A DNA stretch of 40,071 nucleotides from a virus. The stretch is from the UHGV virus genome UHGV-2079066, one strand, 5' to 3'. The notes under the pieces were generated by a model that was not told the origin of the DNA, ran no database searches, and saw only the letters and a program-made list of their open reading frames with translations. The stretch's first letter is position 1. The number at the start of each line of letters is the position of its first letter. A program made the position numbers and the translations under genes. This document shows positions 29,967 to 40,071 of the stretch, piece after piece.

Positions 29967-30518
29967 TTATTTCTCCATACTCGAAGAGTTGTTCGCCAAG
30001 GCGCCCGGAGCTGCACACTCGCGGGCGTCACTCTTTTCAGCGACACAAAAAACTCGGTAAAGCAGCGTGACGTGCTCCTGAAACTTCGCGATCACCTGGT
30101 AGCTGTTCTCCTCTATCTGAGCACGCTCATCTGCGTCAATCACCCCATCAGCAGTAGCCTTTCGCACAAAGGTAGAATGACGACCAATCCATTCAATGGA
30201 CTCCATCAGGCGCTGGTTAATATCGGCGTTATCCAAATCATCAACATCTGCCAGCGGTACGAATACGCCTTGAGAATGGCGCGCAACGGCATCAGCAATA
30301 TGAGTCGAACCACCAGCACGCTGTAGAACCATCGCCCAACCCAACGGGAATATCTGATCGCCCTCAGTGCGGAGACGGTTGAACAACCCGTTCTCTGAAG
30401 TTCCTAACCATTCCGCGGCCTCGGCATACCCACCAGGAAGGTCGGTAATGGTTTTTTTTATTGCGACCACCAGCCAGGCTGGCTGACGTTCGACTTTCCA
30501 ACTAGGTTCATTACCCAC
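29967..30518 (-). CDS. CII-like lysogeny-establishment regulator (large ~180-aa type)
   Basis: seen: GTG start with AAGGGGG SD 23 nt after the cro stop; ...YAEAAEWLGTSENGLFNRLR... is HTH-like. Family name is recalled, not verified. Confidence 0.45.
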   Translation of the reverse strand: MGNEPSWKVERQPAWLVVAIKKTITDLPGGYAEAAEWLGTSENGLFNRLRTEGDQIFPLGWAMVLQRAGGSTHIADAVARHSQGVFVPLADVDDLDNADINQRLMESIEWIGRHSTFVRKATADGVIDADERAQIEENSYQVIAKFQEHVTLLYRVFCVAEKSDARECAAPGALANNSSSMEK

Positions 30519-30541: not shown

Positions 30542-30745
30542 TTACTGCTTGTGTTGAGAATTGTTAAGTTTGCTGTAGAGAGAAGCGTCGTATTTCAACT
30601 TCCCGTTCGTAATTCTTTCAATGTAAAGAGCCTGTTTTTCTGGGATTACTTCACCCCATTGACATACGGCACTGTGAGTTACCCCTAAGGCAACTGCGGT
30701 TTTAGAAATGCCGCCGTAGTAGTCGACGACTGTCCCTTTATGCAT
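30542..30745 (-). CDS. cro: Cro-like repressor (YdaS/Cro-type HTH)
   Basis: seen: 67 aa, GGISKTAVALGVTHSAVCQWGEVIP HTH; divergent from cI across an operator region. Confidence 0.75.
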   Translation of the reverse strand: MHKGTVVDYYGGISKTAVALGVTHSAVCQWGEVIPEKQALYIERITNGKLKYDASLYSKLNNSQHKQ

Positions 30746-30845: not shown

Positions 30846-31478
30846 ATGGATACCGTTGGCAGCAGACTGAGATTTAGAAGAAAGCAGAAAAAACTTACCC
30901 AGCGCGATGTGGCTGAGTGGGCAGGAGTAAGCGCGTCTGCTGTGACCCAGTGGGAAAGTGATTTAACAAAACTTTCTGGTGAGAACTTGATATTGGTGTG
31001 TAAATGCCTTCAGTGCTCGCCAGAATGGTTGGTTTTTGGTTCAGGCGATATCGAAAATGGCATTAACATCAACTTGATGTCTGCCAGAGAGGTCCCTCTC
31101 ATATCATGGGTGCAAGCTGGTAATTGGACGGAAGTAATTGGAAATCCTAATAATGAACAAGTGAAAACCACTCGAAAACTTTCTGATTCCGCCTTTGCTT
31201 TGAGGGTTAAGGGAGATTCAATGACTTCTAGCCAGGAGTTGAGTATTCCTGAAGGTTCTATTGTTATTGTTGAACCAGAGTTCGGCTTCGTGGATGAGGC
31301 AAACGGTAAAATTGTCGTTGCTCAAACGGTATCTGGTGGTGAGGCAACTTTAAAAAAGCTGGCGATAGACCCACCGTTTTCGTACCTAATCCCACTGAAT
31401 CCTGCGTTTAAACCCATTGAGGTGAATCAAGAGACCAATCTAATTGGGATAGTTAAACAAATTATCATTGACCTTTAG
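30846..31478 (+). CDS. cI: CI-like repressor (HTH_XRE plus LexA-type S24 autopeptidase domain)
   Basis: seen: N-terminal LTQRDVAEWAGVSASAVTQWE; Ala-Gly in VQAGNW; Ser in KGDSM and downstream Lys. Confidence 0.9.
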   Translation: MDTVGSRLRFRRKQKKLTQRDVAEWAGVSASAVTQWESDLTKLSGENLILVCKCLQCSPEWLVFGSGDIENGININLMSAREVPLISWVQAGNWTEVIGNPNNEQVKTTRKLSDSAFALRVKGDSMTSSQELSIPEGSIVIVEPEFGFVDEANGKIVVAQTVSGGEATLKKLAIDPPFSYLIPLNPAFKPIEVNQETNLIGIVKQIIIDL

Positions 31479-36441: not shown

Positions 36442-37005
36442 GTGAACAACTTAATGATCGACCTTGAAACTATGGGCAAAAAGTCGAATGCCCCTATTGT
36501 CTCCATTGGTGCCGTGTTCTTCGATCCGCAAAGCGGTGAACTGGGTCAGGAGTTTTACACCGCCGTTAACCTTGAAAGCGCTATGGAGCAGGGAGCGGTG
36601 CCAGATGGTGACACTATTCTGTGGTGGTTAAGACAAAGCTCAGAAGCACGATCAGCAATCTGTGTTGATGATGCGATGCCGATATCGTCTGCCCTATCTG
36701 AACTGAGCCATTTCATTAACCGACATTCTGATAACCCGAAATATTTAAAAGTTTGGGGCAATGGAGCTACTTTCGACAACGTTATATTGCGCGGCGCATA
36801 TGAGCGCGCCGGCCAGGTTTGCCCGTGGCAATTTTGGAACGATCACGACGTCAGAACCATCGTCACATTAGGCAGAGTTGTGGGTTTCGATCCTAAGCGA
36901 GATATGCCATTCGATGGGGTTGCACATAACGCACTGGCCGATGCCCGCCACCAGGCCAAATACGTTTCAGCAATTTGGCAACGTCTACTGCCCCACCAGC
37001 AATAA
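36442..37005 (+). CDS. DnaQ-like 3'-5' exonuclease (DEDDh type)
   Basis: seen: MIDLETMG (Asp-x-Glu), ...VWGNGATFDN..., ...HNALADA...; GTG start with AGGAG SD. Confidence 0.75.
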   Translation: MNNLMIDLETMGKKSNAPIVSIGAVFFDPQSGELGQEFYTAVNLESAMEQGAVPDGDTILWWLRQSSEARSAICVDDAMPISSALSELSHFINRHSDNPKYLKVWGNGATFDNVILRGAYERAGQVCPWQFWNDHDVRTIVTLGRVVGFDPKRDMPFDGVAHNALADARHQAKYVSAIWQRLLPHQQ

Positions 37006-37055
37006 TTTATAAATATGAAAGCCCGGGTGCAGCCGGGCTGTATGGAGAATCTGTC

Positions 37056-37265
37056 ATGGCAAAACTAATGAAGGCGAGTCAGTGGGGTAAACGCGAATTT
37101 ACCAAAGACTCGATCCCGGATAATCGAACCATTAAACGTTGGGTTGAAAACGGACTTCTCACAGGCAAAATCGTAGACGGATCTGTTTGGGTCTGCGAGT
37201 CTGAAAAATGGGGGGTCGACTCAATGGTTAATCATACGGTTCGCCAGCTTATCAGTGAGGGTTAA
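37056..37265 (+). CDS. xis: excisionase-like protein
   Basis: seen: 69 aa from ATG 37056 (GGAGA SD); stop 2 nt before int ATG. inference from position and size; motif recall is weak. Confidence 0.55.
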   Translation: MAKLMKASQWGKREFTKDSIPDNRTIKRWVENGLLTGKIVDGSVWVCESEKWGVDSMVNHTVRQLISEG

Positions 37266-37267
37266 CC

Positions 37268-38446
37268 ATGGCAGCCAGGCCAAGAAAAAGAGAATACCGC
37301 CATCTACCCGAATATCTAATATTCGATAAAGATCGCGGCGTTTATAAATTTACGCTTATAACTGGGAAAAAAAAGAATATCGGTAAAGACAGGGCTGTAG
37401 CGATCGCTATAGCCCGTGAATACAACCTCAGAATGAGGCCTACAAATGTACCATCAGTAGAAATACTTGTCCGTGAATCTGGCGGTGTAACGGGGGAGGC
37501 AAAACCATTTGCTGAACACGTAGATCATATTATGGAGCGGGCGATTGAGAATGAGCGCCCTTCACAGAATACACTCGACGATTGGAACAACGATGCTCTG
37601 AGGGTAAAAGAATTCTTCATCAGCATACCAGCTTGCGATATTGAGCTGGAGCATGTGAACGCCTATATAAACCACTACCATGCCGAAGCATCAGCAAACG
37701 TACAAAACAGGAAAGTCAGCTTTCTTAAAAAATTATTCTCCTATGCGGTCGATGAATCGCTAATGTTCGATAACCCGGCAACCCGTAAAAAAATGCGTAG
37801 GATAGAAGAGAAGAAACGCCAGCGCCTCTCACTTGATAACTTTAAAGCTATCAGGCGCGCAGCTGAACCATGGTTACGGACCGCGATGGATTTGGCATTG
37901 CAGACAACACACGCACGATTGGAGGTTTCACGGATCCGTTACTCCATAAGAGAGCCTAAAGACGGCATCTGCGGGTGTCTATGGTTAGCACAACCAGAAA
38001 ACGGTATTTATGGGACGCTATACATCCACAGGCAGAAAGTGCAAAAAAAAGAGGCATCTCACGTTGCAATCCCGATTGGGGAAGAGTTGAAGCGGATAAT
38101 TGACGATAGTCGAGATAATGTTGCCAGTCCGTTTGTCGTTCACAGAATCCCAGAACGGCAGGTTAAACGCAGCAAAGAGGTTTCACACCCTACTCAAGTT
38201 GCACCGGATTATTTAAGTCGGTCGTTTTCAGCTACGCGTGACATGCTAGGTTTATGCGACCATCTACCGATGGACGAAAGACCAACCTTTCACGAAATCA
38301 GAGCGCTGGCTGCGCATCTTTTCGATCAGCAGGGTATCGATCCACAAGGGCGAATGGCACATAGCGATGCGAAATCAACAAAGATCTACACGCAAAACCA
38401 TATCGACTGGGTAGTAGTTCCTCATGGCGAGATTCAGACAGCATAA
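37268..38446 (+). CDS. int: tyrosine integrase
   Basis: seen: 392 aa; C-terminal HEIRALAAHLF...KIYTQNH carries the His-x-x-Arg and catalytic Tyr of the R-H-R-Y family; adjacent to att. Confidence 0.9.
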   Translation: MAARPRKREYRHLPEYLIFDKDRGVYKFTLITGKKKNIGKDRAVAIAIAREYNLRMRPTNVPSVEILVRESGGVTGEAKPFAEHVDHIMERAIENERPSQNTLDDWNNDALRVKEFFISIPACDIELEHVNAYINHYHAEASANVQNRKVSFLKKLFSYAVDESLMFDNPATRKKMRRIEEKKRQRLSLDNFKAIRRAAEPWLRTAMDLALQTTHARLEVSRIRYSIREPKDGICGCLWLAQPENGIYGTLYIHRQKVQKKEASHVAIPIGEELKRIIDDSRDNVASPFVVHRIPERQVKRSKEVSHPTQVAPDYLSRSFSATRDMLGLCDHLPMDERPTFHEIRALAAHLFDQQGIDPQGRMAHSDAKSTKIYTQNHIDWVVVPHGEIQTA

Positions 38447-38451
38447 AAAAG

Positions 38452-38479
38452 GCACCAGTAGGTGCCTTTGTGATTTGCT
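38452..38479 (+). terminator. rho-independent terminator after int
   Basis: seen: aggcacc-agta-ggtgcct followed by ttgtgattt. Confidence 0.65.
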
Positions 38480-38531
38480 CTCTTAGCAACGAACTAAGAA
38501 AGCCCAAGCCTCGTAGCCATATTCATGTGCA

Positions 38532-38636
38532 TCAAGGACTTTTTGAGAGTTTCCACGAACCTTGCGGTAACGACAGAAGACCCAGCGAAACCCTTTCGGA
38601 GCCGCTTTTGAAACAATTGACTTCAAACCCATTCAT
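38532..38636 (-). CDS. candidate micro-ORF (34 aa) with near-consensus SD
   Basis: seen: TAAGGAGGTG 5 nt upstream of ATG; MNGFEVNCFKSGSERVSLGLLSLPQGSWKLSKSP; not hydrophobic. Confidence 0.3.
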   Translation of the reverse strand: MNGFEVNCFKSGSERVSLGLLSLPQGSWKLSKSP

Positions 38637-38753
38637 AAACACCTCCTTACCGAGAGAGATTTTTTCCTTGAACCAACTCTCCCGAAGTGTTATTTTCGGG
38701 CTGCGTATTGAGAAGTTCACGGTGACGATGCCTCTTGGTTTCATCGCCTAGTT

Positions 38754-38792
38754 AAACCCTGATGGTTGGCGCCGTCAGGGTTTTTACTTTTT
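38754..38792. terminator. hairpin terminator (stronger on plus strand) just past the ImmA-like stop
   Basis: seen: aaaccctgatggttggcgccgtcagggttt followed by ttactttttt on plus strand. Confidence 0.45.
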
Positions 38793-39311
38793 TAACAACT
38801 GCTTTTGATAATCAGCTGCATGTGCGGATACCCCGCATGCTTCAGCAATTTCTTCTACCGACATGTTCCGCAACAATGCTGAATGGCTATATGGCACGAG
38901 CAATTCCCCACTAAAACACTTTGCTTGCCACTCGCTACTTTCAAAAGCTCTAATTTCAACTCCTGGAGCAGCGCGAGCAAAAGCAATATTCTTATGCATC
39001 AGAAGATGCCCTATTTCATGGGCAACCGTCATACGGTCACGGCCATTTCCAGCATGGGCACCTTCATATACATCTTCGCGTAGAATAATTAGTGATTCCT
39101 GAGGCATAGTTAGCCCATGAGTGCCACCCATCTCCTTTTCAGAAGCTGTTTCAAACGAAAAGTTGGGTAAGATCTGCGGTAACGCGAACTCAAGCATTTC
39201 AATCACAGGAAAATACAAATCATGTATCTTCAGCATCGAGCGTAAATTATTAGTTAAACCGCGAACCGCGCTGCGGCTTAAAGGTGGCACTCGATAATCT
39301 TGTCCGCTCAA
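38784..39311 (-). CDS. ImmA/IrrE-family zinc metallopeptidase
   Basis: seen: HEXXH as AHEIGHLLMH; 175 aa; directly downstream of an XRE HTH gene. Confidence 0.8.
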   Translation of the reverse strand: MSGQDYRVPPLSRSAVRGLTNNLRSMLKIHDLYFPVIEMLEFALPQILPNFSFETASEKEMGGTHGLTMPQESLIILREDVYEGAHAGNGRDRMTVAHEIGHLLMHKNIAFARAAPGVEIRAFESSEWQAKCFSGELLVPYSHSALLRNMSVEEIAEACGVSAHAADYQKQLLKK

Positions 39312-39325
39312 ACAGAGCCTCCTAC

Positions 39326-39685
39326 TTATTGTTTTTTAGTTAACAATTCACGTAGACGTTTAAACTCATCATCACTTAGCTCATCAAAGTTGCGTGCAAA
39401 TGCCATCGCTACTTCACGAGCATTTTGATTCTTACCCGAAAGATTAATCTCAACAGATTGTTGAGAATCACGAGCTGCTTTCGCTAACTCATCCCCAGCA
39501 TGAACGCCTTCATTAGTGAAATAATTAATGATGCTTTTCAATACAGGGTCAGTAACAGCCCGCTTTCCTGTTTCAATTGCTGAGAGGTAAGACGAGGTCA
39601 CGCCCATAGCATCAGCCATGCTTTTCAGCGTGACACCGACGTCTATTCGTAATTTCCTAACTTTCTTACCAAACGGCGTTAACAT
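39326..39685 (-). CDS. XRE-family HTH transcriptional regulator
   Basis: seen: KKVRKLRIDVGVTLKSMADAMGVTSSYLSAIETGKR; GAGAGG SD. Confidence 0.8.
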   Translation of the reverse strand: MLTPFGKKVRKLRIDVGVTLKSMADAMGVTSSYLSAIETGKRAVTDPVLKSIINYFTNEGVHAGDELAKAARDSQQSVEINLSGKNQNAREVAMAFARNFDELSDDEFKRLRELLTKKQ

Positions 39686-39752
39686 ATTTTTGCCTCTCTA
39701 ATGTGCGTGAGAGCCGGATGTACTCGACTCTGGGAGCAAGATAACAAACCAC

Positions 39753-39790
39753 AGACGATAAATCAACTAAATTTTGTTGATTTATCGTCT
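39753..39790. promoter_or_regulatory. perfect 15-bp inverted repeat (operator- or terminator-like) upstream of the XRE gene
   Basis: seen: AGACGATAAATCAAC-taaatttt-GTTGATTTATCGTCT, ~70 bp upstream of the XRE start codon. Confidence 0.5.
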
Positions 39791-39994
39791 TTTAAAAGTT
39801 CATGCCTTTATACTTATAGTAGTTCATTTTCTTCTTACAAGATTGCCAGTTTATGCTGAAATGAATGGGGAGAAACCACCACCTAAGCCATTGAAGTATA
39901 TAGAGCAGATTATGTCGAAAAAGCACTGTTTGTTTATACATGCAAATGGTACTTTGAACCAGCAATAGCGCGGCTCTCAGCGTTTTACAAGCGG

Positions 39995-40047
39995 CGTCAT
40001 GGGGTGTCGGGGGTCGGAGGTTCAAATCCTCTCGTGCCGACCAAAAA
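39995..40047. repeat. att core direct repeat, right copy (displaced tRNA 3' fragment)
   Basis: seen: identical to 25-77; upstream flank is not tRNA-like, so this copy is partial. Confidence 0.85.
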
Positions 40048-40071
40048 TCCCAAGAAAAAACCAACCCTTAC

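Follow-up and report, generated by a model that had tools for sequence, protein, structure and literature searches.

Thousands of prophages carry annotated pairs of an XRE-family helix-turn-helix (HTH) regulator and an ImmA-like metallopeptidase, which tend to be passed over as 'regulator plus peptidase', and the target that they regulate is mostly unknown. One such pair lies near one end of the virus genome UHGV-2079066, a stretch of 40,071 nucleotides (nt) that is referred to here as the window and to whose numbering all coordinates belong unless another locus is named. The question raised by this locus is what the pair controls. The first-pass annotation treated the two genes as a two-gene operon; the domains, the cargo slot, the operator and the analogy with protease switches that it described have stood, the two-gene layout has not, and the function had been left as an open list. 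Taken alone, the pair is ordinary. The interest of the locus comes from a conserved, usually unannotated micro-gene with antisense and translational locks, and this 49-residue gene, with its predicted antisense RNA unit, is probably the point of the module. The interpretation favoured here, with moderate confidence, is that a protease switch of the CapH/CapP or ImmR/ImmA kind controls a triple-locked small payload in a three-gene prophage cargo cassette. The parts of the cassette are as follows.

39753-39790, no strand assigned: operator palindrome AGACGATAAATCAAC-N8-GTTGATTTATCGTCT, whose core is enriched upstream of homologous HTH genes
39738-39766, minus strand: predicted sigma-70 operon promoter, read from the sequence
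39326-39685, minus strand: XRE-family HTH repressor of 119 residues, with matches to HTH_3, capH and PDB 9sf2
38784-39311, minus strand: single-domain M78 zinc metallopeptidase of 175 residues, with HEIGH at residues 98-102 and E127
38633-38783, minus strand: intercistronic leader of 151 nt, with a hairpin after the peptidase stop, an anti-Shine-Dalgarno (anti-SD) segment and a Shine-Dalgarno (SD) sequence
38703-38793, plus strand: predicted cis-antisense RNA of about 90 nt with inferred ends, from terminator scan, fold and strand asymmetry
38668-38696, plus strand: predicted antisense promoter, conserved in gamma-proteobacterial relatives
38483-38632, minus strand: gene for a basic protein of 49 residues, MGLKSIVSKAAPKGFRWVFCRYRKVRGNSQKVLDAHEYGYEAWAFLVRC, a conserved open reading frame (ORF) with a low ratio of nonsynonymous to synonymous substitution (dN/dS)

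The small gene downstream of the peptidase

The description of the locus as a two-gene operon had to be given up, since a conserved gene for a 49-residue protein and an antisense transcription unit sit between the peptidase and the integrase gene. The small ORF starts 151 nt past the peptidase stop codon, within the 330 base pairs (bp) that separate the peptidase from the integrase terminator, and is preceded by a strong SD sequence (with its flank, AAGGAGGTG at 38648-38640). Its product is basic, with a net charge of about +7 and ten K/R against three D/E residues. The ORF is found at the same distance in E. coli, Klebsiella, Morganella, Aeromonas, Vibrio and Wohlfahrtiimonas, and also in an Enterobacterales cluster whose sole named member is from Yersinia enterocolitica. 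Divergent versions of 32-56 residues occur in Lachnospiraceae, Ruminococcaceae, Paenibacillus, Veillonella, Sphingomonas and Aliidiomarina, with a consensus of roughly ΦIFRAxxxxxDGxxIYARDYGKKAFxIxV followed by a basic tail.

A census with a hidden Markov model built from 14 sequences covered 125 loci encoding a near full-length peptidase homologue. The small ORF was present in 105 of these, from Proteobacteria to Firmicutes, on the same strand and with its stop 270-350 nt beyond the peptidase. HTH and peptidase genes were adjacent in 114 of the 120 evaluable loci, and all three genes occurred together in 96. Two small-protein homologues that were looked up independently also sit behind an HTH-peptidase pair, one of them at a locus whose flanks, as far as shown, carry genes for RHS repeats and hydrolases and none from phage. 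In pairwise comparison with the window copy, dN/dS is 0.03-0.10, and the small ORF is therefore considered to be a protein-coding gene under strong purifying selection. Its strong SD and a confident structural model of its product speak for a real gene as well.

The gene is uncalled in the two RefSeq records examined and is called in some assembly gene sets only. The protein has no match in Pfam, NCBIfam or PADLOC; the Pfam search came back empty, whether for the window protein at E values up to 10 or for eight diverse relatives at values up to 1, and Pfam places it in neither DUF2188 nor DUF3892. In PHROGs it matches phrog_33859, a family of unknown function. An exhaustive HMMER profile search of 1.84 billion representatives yielded 83 clusters of the family, all of 42-128 residues apart from one 985-residue repeat-like match that was discounted, and no credible domain fusion among the 83. 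The AlphaFold2 (AF2) model, with a predicted local distance difference test (pLDDT) score of 88.9, suggests an all-beta protein of four strands without a hydrophobic helix, and no structural neighbour of this model was found. In the searchable literature, coverage of which is incomplete, no description was found of this family of about 45 residues, of the antisense unit or of the anti-SD lock.

Frameshifted or truncated natural variants of the small ORF are present in public assemblies (P0143, P0144), and could reflect either counter-selection of a harmful product or simple decay. Two further ORFs in the same interval, of 93 residues (38470-38751, plus strand) and 70 residues (38532-38744, minus strand), were rejected as chance ORFs, both being in the wrong frame relative to the conserved 49-residue frame.

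Antisense RNA and translational control

The leader between peptidase and small gene is mostly 120-200 nt long across loci and its sequence is partly conserved. No convincing promoter or terminator was found on the sense strand of this spacer, so that read-through from the promoter under operator control is the simplest way in which the small gene would be transcribed. The opposite strand is different. Among 79 non-redundant spacers, with a site counted as promoter-like when at least 9 of 12 consensus positions match, such sites lie on the antisense strand in 47 and on the sense strand in eight, as against 14 on average, and 22 at most, in shuffled spacers. The predicted antisense start falls at a fixed place, a median of 67 nt upstream of the small-ORF ATG (71 nt in the window). 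The window promoter is read as a -35 element TTGAAC (38668-38673), a 17-nt spacer with TGT and a -10 element TATTTT (38691-38696), and the 17-nt spacing is exact in gamma-proteobacterial relatives.

The predicted antisense RNA comprises stem-loop 1 (38721-38747) and a terminator hairpin (38754-38783) followed by a T-run, and is complementary to the first 85 nt or so after the peptidase stop codon. The T-run follows the hairpin at 38754-38783 on the plus strand only, and this hairpin is therefore taken as the terminator of a transcript antisense to the cassette. The same polarity is seen across the spacers, where the hairpin nearest the peptidase stop has an A-run before it, as expected of an antisense terminator, in 42 of 79 and a T-run after it in only 7. 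The two-hairpin fold of the antisense RNA has a z-score of -4.8. Terminator stems differ wholly between loci with their pairing kept, as in CCCTGA/TCAGGG, CCCCTTGCA/TGCAGGGGG, GCCCTTGT/ACAAGGGC and GGTTCTTATGA/TCATAAGAACC. Applied to the antisense alignment, RNAalifold recovered stem-loop 1 but not the terminator, because stem lengths differ and the alignment is gappy there, and per-sequence hairpin statistics were used in its place. The Rfam family sar (RF00262) aligns over its full length (1-68), mainly through the two hairpins, with a score of 29.9 bits (E 2e-4 in a 231-nt search), which lies under the Rfam gathering threshold of 43 bits and does not amount to membership of sar.

In the hairpin adjoining the peptidase stop, the loop (38763-38774) is of a recurring kind, TTGGCG or its complement CGCCAA, in either orientation (also in L006, L010, L021, L111, L135 and L168; L-numbers denote individual loci). 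UUGG fits the YUNR U-turn motif, which is presumably typical of loops that initiate pairing between an antisense RNA and its target.

A second element in the leader is predicted to act on translation. In the sense leader, the SD together with its flank, GGAGGTGTT (38648-38640), can base-pair with the anti-SD segment AACACTTC (38691-38684), and the minimum free energy fold of the leader (z-score -3.0) has the SD paired. Comparable anti-SD segments are found 40-65 nt upstream of the start codon in most relatives, and the anti-SD:SD pairing reaches a z-score of -2 or below in 25 of the 79 spacers. The pairing covaries between loci, being AACAC/GTGTT in the window, TAGTCAT/GTGACTA in L112 and L118, and CAAGTCC/GGGCTTG in L023.

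These data bear on the simplest objection to a third gene, namely that neither the 49-residue ORF nor the antisense features mean anything, and that an ordinary XRE/ImmA pair is followed by no more than the terminator and spacer of two convergent genes. In favour of this view, most annotation pipelines do not call the ORF, and the antisense promoter of the window is weak by consensus. However, the dN/dS values were obtained in the small-ORF frame, the ORF keeps a constant distance in 105 of 125 loci across phyla, and promoters and terminators show a strong strand asymmetry. An incidental origin is therefore very improbable.

The repressor and the peptidase

Domain searches bore out the first-pass reading of both proteins of the pair. 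The 119-residue HTH protein matches HTH_3 (E 1.4e-9) and the 175-residue HEXXH protein matches Peptidase_M78 (PF06114, IrrE N-terminal-like; E 8.6e-10, 38.9 bits against a cut-off of 22). The peptidase gene uses a TTG start codon 14 nt beyond the HTH stop, with GGAGG 7 nt ahead of it. Relatives of the peptidase number 167 among 5.8 billion proteins searched, and nearly all of them are single-domain proteins of 165-200 residues; they come from Enterobacterales, Vibrio, Aeromonas, Pseudoalteromonas, Stenotrophomonas and Paenibacillus, and from many metagenomes. When 44 homologues, all of about 165-200 residues, are aligned, H98, E99, H102, E127, W128 and Q129 are invariant. Since the HExxH…E residues are among these, the peptidase appears to be under selection as an active zinc enzyme, with catalysis predicted from the conserved site.

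Among solved structures, the peptidase is matched best by CapP and then by IrrE. A single-sequence search against PDB returned no match, and only a profile search of the family succeeded, with CapP (7T5T) at E 4.5e-14 followed by IrrE at 1.8e-4, in each case over the peptidase domain only. The AF2 model (pLDDT 94.3) has as its top Foldseek matches CapP, the Xre-peptidase regulator of M. tuberculosis (PrpR-type) and IrrE/PprI, which is consistent with the same assignment. The PADLOC capP profile is matched at E 5.9e-12 over positions 14-146 of 242, and the alignment to CapP itself covers residues 81-181 of 291. HExxH and a downstream Glu in an M78 fold, the features of the M78/COG2856 (ImmA/IrrE) superfamily, are both present; no GAF or other sensor domain is recognisable in the 175 residues. 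The protein is thus a member of the ImmA/IrrE/CapP superfamily without the C-terminal GAF domain.

The HTH protein points in the same direction. It matches PADLOC capH at E 8.3e-10, residues 2-115 aligning with profile positions 4-95 of 103 (full length), and its closest full-length HTH structure is PDB 9sf2, a full-length match for which no paper mentioning the entry was found in the searchable literature. Leaving aside the HTH itself, conservation among 92 homologues is highest in A-x-A-F-A-R-x-F (residues 92-99), which belongs to the C-terminal domain. In CapH, the cut has been shown to fall between F82 and R83, on the first helix of the C-terminal dimerisation domain (bioRxiv 10.1101/2022.04.27.489752). 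Because this cut lies in a comparable place, the AFAR motif is a plausible site of cleavage by the peptidase. With capH and capP as the best PADLOC matches of the pair, CapP 7T5T as the best structure and AFAR lying about where CapH is cleaved, the earlier analogy with protease-controlled switches fits.

The lack of a sensor domain lends interest to a rival explanation, in which the small protein acts as a detached sensor or co-factor in place of the absent GAF domain and, for instance, binds single-stranded DNA or another cue and so activates cleavage; the output would then be the action of the peptidase on other substrates, or of the repressor on unlinked genes. In CapP and IrrE the C-terminal GAF domain forms a groove that binds single-stranded DNA, and in CapP sensing requires this peptidase-GAF groove (bioRxiv 10.64898/2026.05.16.725639); the 175-residue peptidase aligns solely to the peptidase domains of CapP (291 residues) and IrrE. 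The small protein is basic, is co-inherited with the pair from Proteobacteria to Firmicutes and is never fused, which would suit a target within the module. Nevertheless, three layers of repression are unneeded for a co-factor, unrelated DUF4417 or other ORFs fill the same slot in relatives, and the window has no other operator copy and hence no visible output gene. The published work cited describes ImmA of B. subtilis as functioning with no partner gene of this sort. A detached sensor is therefore considered unlikely.

The same two proteins could also be read as a classical type II toxin-antitoxin system of the Xre-COG2856 kind that stabilises the prophage, with the peptidase as toxin and the HTH protein as labile antitoxin and autorepressor. 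Such systems have been predicted by comparative genomics (PMC2701414), an antitoxin-like HTH gene stands first in the gene order, autoregulation would act through the palindrome, and an Xre-peptidase fusion, PD-lambda-2B, is toxic in E. coli (PMC9519451). However, the pneumococcal COG2856 proteins that were tested are non-toxic in either host (PMC4257102), and in every characterised relative it is the peptidase that cleaves the repressor and not the reverse. A two-gene system with a peptidase toxin leaves the conserved third gene, the antisense RNA and the anti-SD hairpin unexplained, and the authors of PMC2701414 themselves favoured a circuit of protease and repressor controlling a third component. 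This reading, which the earlier list had included, is now regarded as very unlikely; a payload of the defence or addiction type, also on that list, is possible.

Operator and operon promoter

The perfect 15-bp inverted repeat that the first-pass annotation had placed about 70 bp upstream of the HTH gene is present, ending 67 nt from the HTH ATG. The 38 bp at 39753-39790 can be read either as 19-nt arms, 18 of 19 positions complementary, without a spacer, or as perfect 15-nt arms (39753-39767 and 39776-39790) separated by 8 nt. A perfect 15-bp repeat is unexpected by chance in 1.7 kb. Within it lie ATCAAC (39762-39767) and GTTGAT (39776-39781), which correspond to the operator core of the family.

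This core was defined in the 220 nt upstream of homologous HTH genes at 29 non-redundant loci from several phyla. With at most one mismatch, TCAAC-N2-12-GTTGA occurs in 21 of the 29 upstream regions, as against 7.7% of background 220-nt windows from the same loci, and the exact core in 12 of 29 loci as against 26 of 2994 background windows. The gap is nearly always 6-8 nt and the site lies 70-110 nt before the start codon; examples are AAATCAACAAAATTCTGTTGATTT in E. coli, AAATCAACAAAATTTGTTGATTT in a Tissierellaceae metagenome-assembled genome and TTATCAACCTAAAGGTTGATAA in Ruminococcus. The palindrome is the local form of this family-wide operator, TCAAC-N6-8-GTTGA, to which the repressor is predicted to bind. 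In the 40-kb window no second copy was found beyond chance: the palindrome is the sole zero-mismatch copy, and two further matches with two mismatches are at chance level.

The operon promoter is predicted to overlap the operator, its -35 element TTGATT (39766-39761) lying in the right operator arm and being followed by a 17-nt spacer and a -10 element TATCTT (39743-39738); in the gamma-proteobacterial relatives, too, a -35 is provided by the right half-site. It agrees with the consensus at 8 of 12 positions and is hence unlisted by the consensus scan. The Enterobacterales relatives (E. coli, Klebsiella, Morganella), and Aeromonas as well, retain its position, the 17-nt spacing and a -10 of the TAxxTT type; in Vibrio loci the operator is retained, and no -10 was read there. 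With the -35 element inside the right operator arm, bound repressor would occlude its own promoter.

A hairpin in the 5' untranslated region of the HTH gene (39690-39731, minus strand) lies between the predicted transcription start and the HTH ribosome-binding site. It is kept as a structure, with differing sequence, in L011, L106, L006, L092 and L109 (for example AGACCTG…CAGGGTCT, GCAAGC…GCTTGC and AAGCTG…GCAGCTT), and may be an mRNA-stabilising or regulatory stem-loop.

Cargo position and phage context

Whether the switch serves the prophage as a whole or the small gene in particular can be judged from the position of the cassette. The relevant features of the window are listed below.

37268-38446, plus strand: tyrosine integrase, convergent with the cassette
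38443-38474, plus strand: terminator hairpin of the integrase gene, given for context
39859-39994, plus strand: conserved arm-like stretch preceding the tRNA-Pro fragment
39995-40043, plus strand: 3' 49 nt of tRNA-Pro, the attR core, from a reading of the gene end with CCA at 40043
30846-31478: CI (HTH_3 and Peptidase_S24), immunity region
30542-30745: P22_Cro (P22-type Cro), immunity region
29967-30518: CII, immunity region

The window is a lambdoid prophage integrated at tRNA-Pro. Positions 39995-40050 are 100% identical to an E. coli sequence annotated as tRNA-Pro, the last 7 nt of this stretch being flank beyond the gene fragment. No complete tRNA is detected here by ARAGORN, and the piece is therefore taken as an attR remnant, that is, a displaced 3' fragment. 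The end of the prophage at 39859-40043 shares about 90% identity with other E. coli prophage ends at proL/yejO, and 78% with the attP regions of phages Eeyore and Flotzy. Only the attachment (att) arm and the tRNA fragment lie upstream of the operator.

The placing of the pair at an att-proximal cargo site between integrase and attR agrees with what is seen in sister prophages. The slot between integrase and attP/attR (38447-39994 in the window) is variable among prophages that have this integrase and the tRNA-Pro att site in common. E. coli prophages at proL/yejO carry an orthologous cassette in the same place, the related E. coli prophage EC20-4B-2, with the same integrase and att arm, has a gene for a 283-residue hypothetical protein in the slot (L178 2587-3438), and phage Eeyore has nothing between integrase and attP (L179 3001-3186). 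Elsewhere, Aeromonas prophages carry the cassette in their nin region, and a Vibrio prophage whose replication gene is Phage_GPA (P2 gpA-type) has it at the prophage boundary. In Klebsiella it adjoins P4-like elements, in Paenibacillus it follows holin and lysin genes and, in Firmicutes prophages, it lies downstream of endolysin genes. These homologous cassettes, with about 35-67% peptidase identity, occur in unrelated prophages with different repressors, and the cassette at locus L181 has no phage genes in the flanks shown.

Neighbours were scored upstream (36) and downstream (40); ORF calling at the 106 loci was noisy and only ORFs of at least 120 residues were searched against Pfam. The commonest upstream neighbours were endolysin domains (Amidase_3, Amidase_2, GH25, Phage_lysozyme and M15), and the commonest downstream were integrases or recombinases and DUF4417. 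Many IMG/VR matches lie at contig ends. Among sequenced phage isolates the cassette is rare, being present in 6 of 50,697 records, none of them well studied. The variable slots, the unrelated prophages and this rarity together suggest that the cassette is portable cargo (a 'moron') at prophage termini. It is not part of the core regulation of any one phage, and it is not the main induction switch of the prophage.

In relatives where the small ORF is missing, its slot is often taken by DUF4417 or by small ORFs of other kinds. DUF4417 proteins (about 150-230 residues, unknown function) are encoded about 190-220 nt after the peptidase in L015, L016, L017, L019, L020, L024, L027, L033 and L035; elsewhere, in phages, DUF4417 is fused to ParB-CTPase domains. 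Two further types of small basic ORF lie 300-400 nt downstream of the peptidase, '…KKIVPVKPYKRSDGTxVKGHRRSTPN' in L014, L022, L030 and L038 and '…SGRFVTKxxAxxxPxTT…' in L025, L031 and L036, and neither type has been assigned to a family. By analogy with CapH/CapP, which stand beside diverse operons, such replacement fits a conserved regulator with exchangeable payloads.

These observations also bear on the proposal, made in the first-pass annotation, of a second induction switch or anti-repressor system. In such a circuit the peptidase would cleave CI or another phage repressor, or the small protein would be an antirepressor in the style of P22 immI (Mnt/Arc, sar RNA, Ant). Induction of an element is indeed controlled by ImmR/ImmA and by the phi105 repressor, the layout of repressor, antisense RNA and downstream gene resembles P22 arc-sar-ant and is accompanied by the sub-threshold, full-length sar match, and the cassette adjoins the integrase gene. 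On the other hand, the pair is separate from the cI/cro region, as had been claimed: a canonical CI/Cro/CII immunity region lies 8 kb from the cassette, and CI has its own S24 autoprotease. No operator copy is found near any other promoter, homologous cassettes ride on unrelated prophages whose repressors differ, at least one locus (L181) shows a cassette without phage genes in the flanks displayed, and there are sister prophages with the same integrase and att site that lack the cassette. Furthermore, the cassette is convergent with the integrase gene, with terminators between them. A role in induction is consequently disfavoured and regarded as quite unlikely, and the cassette is better seen as a switch for its own small gene.

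Several other features of the region were recorded. Directly upstream of the integrase gene, within 36442-37265, lie a gene for a Rv2179c-like 3'-5' exoribonuclease (187 residues, E 1.5e-75) and a 96-residue excisionase-like ORF; the order exonuclease-xis-int is also found in E. coli sister prophages. A 90-residue ORF at 39792-40064 (minus strand) overlaps the tRNA-Pro fragment and the att arm and was rejected as a chance ORF. Its E. coli counterpart (L001 6442-6819), a RefSeq 'hypothetical protein' (WP_001515623.1), overlaps the cassette operator and promoter, and the 90-residue ORF is probably a gene-calling artefact. Two Rfam matches were set aside as uninformative: IS128 (39743-39937, minus strand), which spans the operator, promoter and att arm with 29.7 bits against a cut-off of 80 and is itself doubted in the literature (PMC3175480), and STnc130 (38360-38477, plus strand), over the integrase 3' end and terminator, with 29.5 bits against a cut-off of 55.

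A model of the cassette

In the favoured model, one promoter would drive the XRE repressor, the M78 peptidase and, via read-through, the 49-residue protein. The repressor would bind the palindrome as an oligomer and shut its own operon; autorepression is suggested by the conservation of the operator and its overlap with the -35 element. Upon a stress signal, most likely DNA damage or phage infection, the peptidase would cut the C-terminal oligomerisation domain of the repressor, probably at AFAR, and transcription would rise, a step that is inferred from the behaviour of CapH/CapP, of DdrO/IrrE and of ImmR/ImmA. The anti-SD hairpin in the 151-nt leader, as a second lock, would limit translation of the small protein, and the cis-antisense RNA of about 90 nt, with its own promoter and terminator, would hold it down as a third. 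Release of the protein would then need strong or sustained derepression, or the loss of a short-lived antisense RNA after host transcription has been shut off.

As the protease switch, the anti-SD hairpin and the antisense RNA would all restrain its expression, the small protein is interpreted as the regulated payload of the cassette. The triple lock, the strong SD, the basic charge and the variable slots at prophage ends favour a growth-arresting or defensive role and, as a speculative reading, the protein would most likely be a potent effector of this kind (abortive-infection or addiction-like). A wider proposal can be put forward tentatively, and is held to be less probable than the switch itself: that the basic beta-protein of about 45 residues is an unrecognised cross-phylum effector behind three locks, either a soluble type I-like toxin or abortive-infection factor, or a universal host-takeover factor.

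Several points weigh against this interpretation. The small ORF is absent from 20 of the 125 loci, and the peptidase is without a recognisable sensor domain, the GAF domain with which CapP and IrrE sense single-stranded DNA being absent. In the window the antisense promoter agrees with only 8 of 12 consensus positions, plus TGT, the resemblance to sar stays below threshold, and the predicted antisense RNA does not overlap the ribosome-binding site of the small ORF. Read-through co-transcription is deduced only from the lack of a sense terminator and promoter. The small protein has neither a homologue of known function nor a structural neighbour and, unlike most type I toxins, is not hydrophobic, so that toxicity is a guess. 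That the repressor is cleaved and binds DNA, that the antisense RNA is made and that the small ORF is translated are predictions throughout.

For this XRE/ImmA subfamily, the analysis provides a concrete candidate for the third component, one that annotation usually misses and that ranges from Enterobacterales to Clostridia. Were the small protein an effector, the damage-sensing logic of CapH/CapP would extend from chromosomal immune operons to prophage cargo, a new small-protein family would be available to defence or toxin biology, and the cassette would offer a compact model of combined proteolytic, transcriptional, antisense and translational control, as well as a new class of portable module, triggered by stress or infection, at prophage ends. 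Should it instead be a detached sensor, it would bear on how GAF-less peptidases of this kind are activated.

Comparison with known systems

The pair itself is of a known kind and probably works like CapH/CapP and ImmR/ImmA, and it lacks defining features of each. CapH and CapP are a CBASS-associated HTH repressor and zinc peptidase (PDB 7T5T, 7T5U), and CapH/CapP-like genes also stand beside small DUF2188 and DUF3892 proteins (Lau et al. 2022, bioRxiv 10.1101/2022.04.27.489752). The cassette has in common with them an XRE HTH protein with a putative C-terminal oligomerisation domain, an M78 peptidase with HExxH…E, the best PADLOC and PDB matches, a conserved F-x-R-type motif where CapH is cleaved, and a variable putative payload next to the regulatory pair. 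It differs in its peptidase: CapP combines the peptidase with a C-terminal GAF groove and, in most members, a cysteine switch, whereas the 175-residue protein is without the GAF domain and so without the interdomain groove that binds single-stranded DNA. It differs also in layout, for CapH/CapP lie upstream of, and divergent from, an immune operon, and the sole gene linked to the present pair is co-directional and downstream. Finally, the putative payload is a protein of about 45 residues where CapH/CapP have an immune operon of known type, a predicted antisense RNA and anti-SD hairpin come in addition, and the whole is prophage cargo.

ImmR/ImmA of ICEBs1 and the phi105 repressor/ImmA, both of B. 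subtilis, are similar in architecture, with a single-domain metalloprotease of about 170 residues encoded directly after the repressor gene, as in the cassette, on a mobile element and beside the integrase gene. Their protease inactivates the repressor, as is predicted for the cassette. However, ImmR/ImmA is a master switch, divergent from the excision or lytic operon, whereas the cassette is optional cargo: the prophage has a separate CI/Cro/CII region, the 40 kb contain a single operator, and sister prophages exist without the cassette. DdrO/IrrE (PprI) of Deinococcus has a homologous peptidase domain and an XRE repressor that is cut in its C-terminal dimerisation domain, but IrrE also has HTH-like and GAF domains, and the system governs a chromosomal DNA-repair regulon through the RDRM motif and is not a mobile cassette.

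For the control of the small gene, the parallels are SOS-regulated type I toxin-antitoxin loci such as tisB/istR-1, and the P22 arc-sar-ant design. Like tisB/istR-1 and P22 immI, the cassette has a small gene under a repressor that responds to stress, a 5' leader structured so that the ribosome-binding site is occluded, and a short antisense RNA, encoded in cis or divergently, that pairs upstream of that site, all of which are predicted here, and its two-hairpin antisense RNA resembles P22 sar. In contrast to the tisB/istR-1 type, the repressor would be removed by a dedicated peptidase and not through LexA/RecA, and the small protein is basic, beta-rich and soluble-looking rather than the hydrophobic membrane peptide typical of type I toxins.

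The same Xre-COG2856 domain pair was predicted to regulate 'a still unknown third component' (Makarova et al. 2009, PMC2701414). In the three-component systems described there, the third components are RelE or PIN toxins beside Xre-peptidase fusions; in the cassette, the corresponding position is taken by a new family of about 45 residues together with its antisense RNA.

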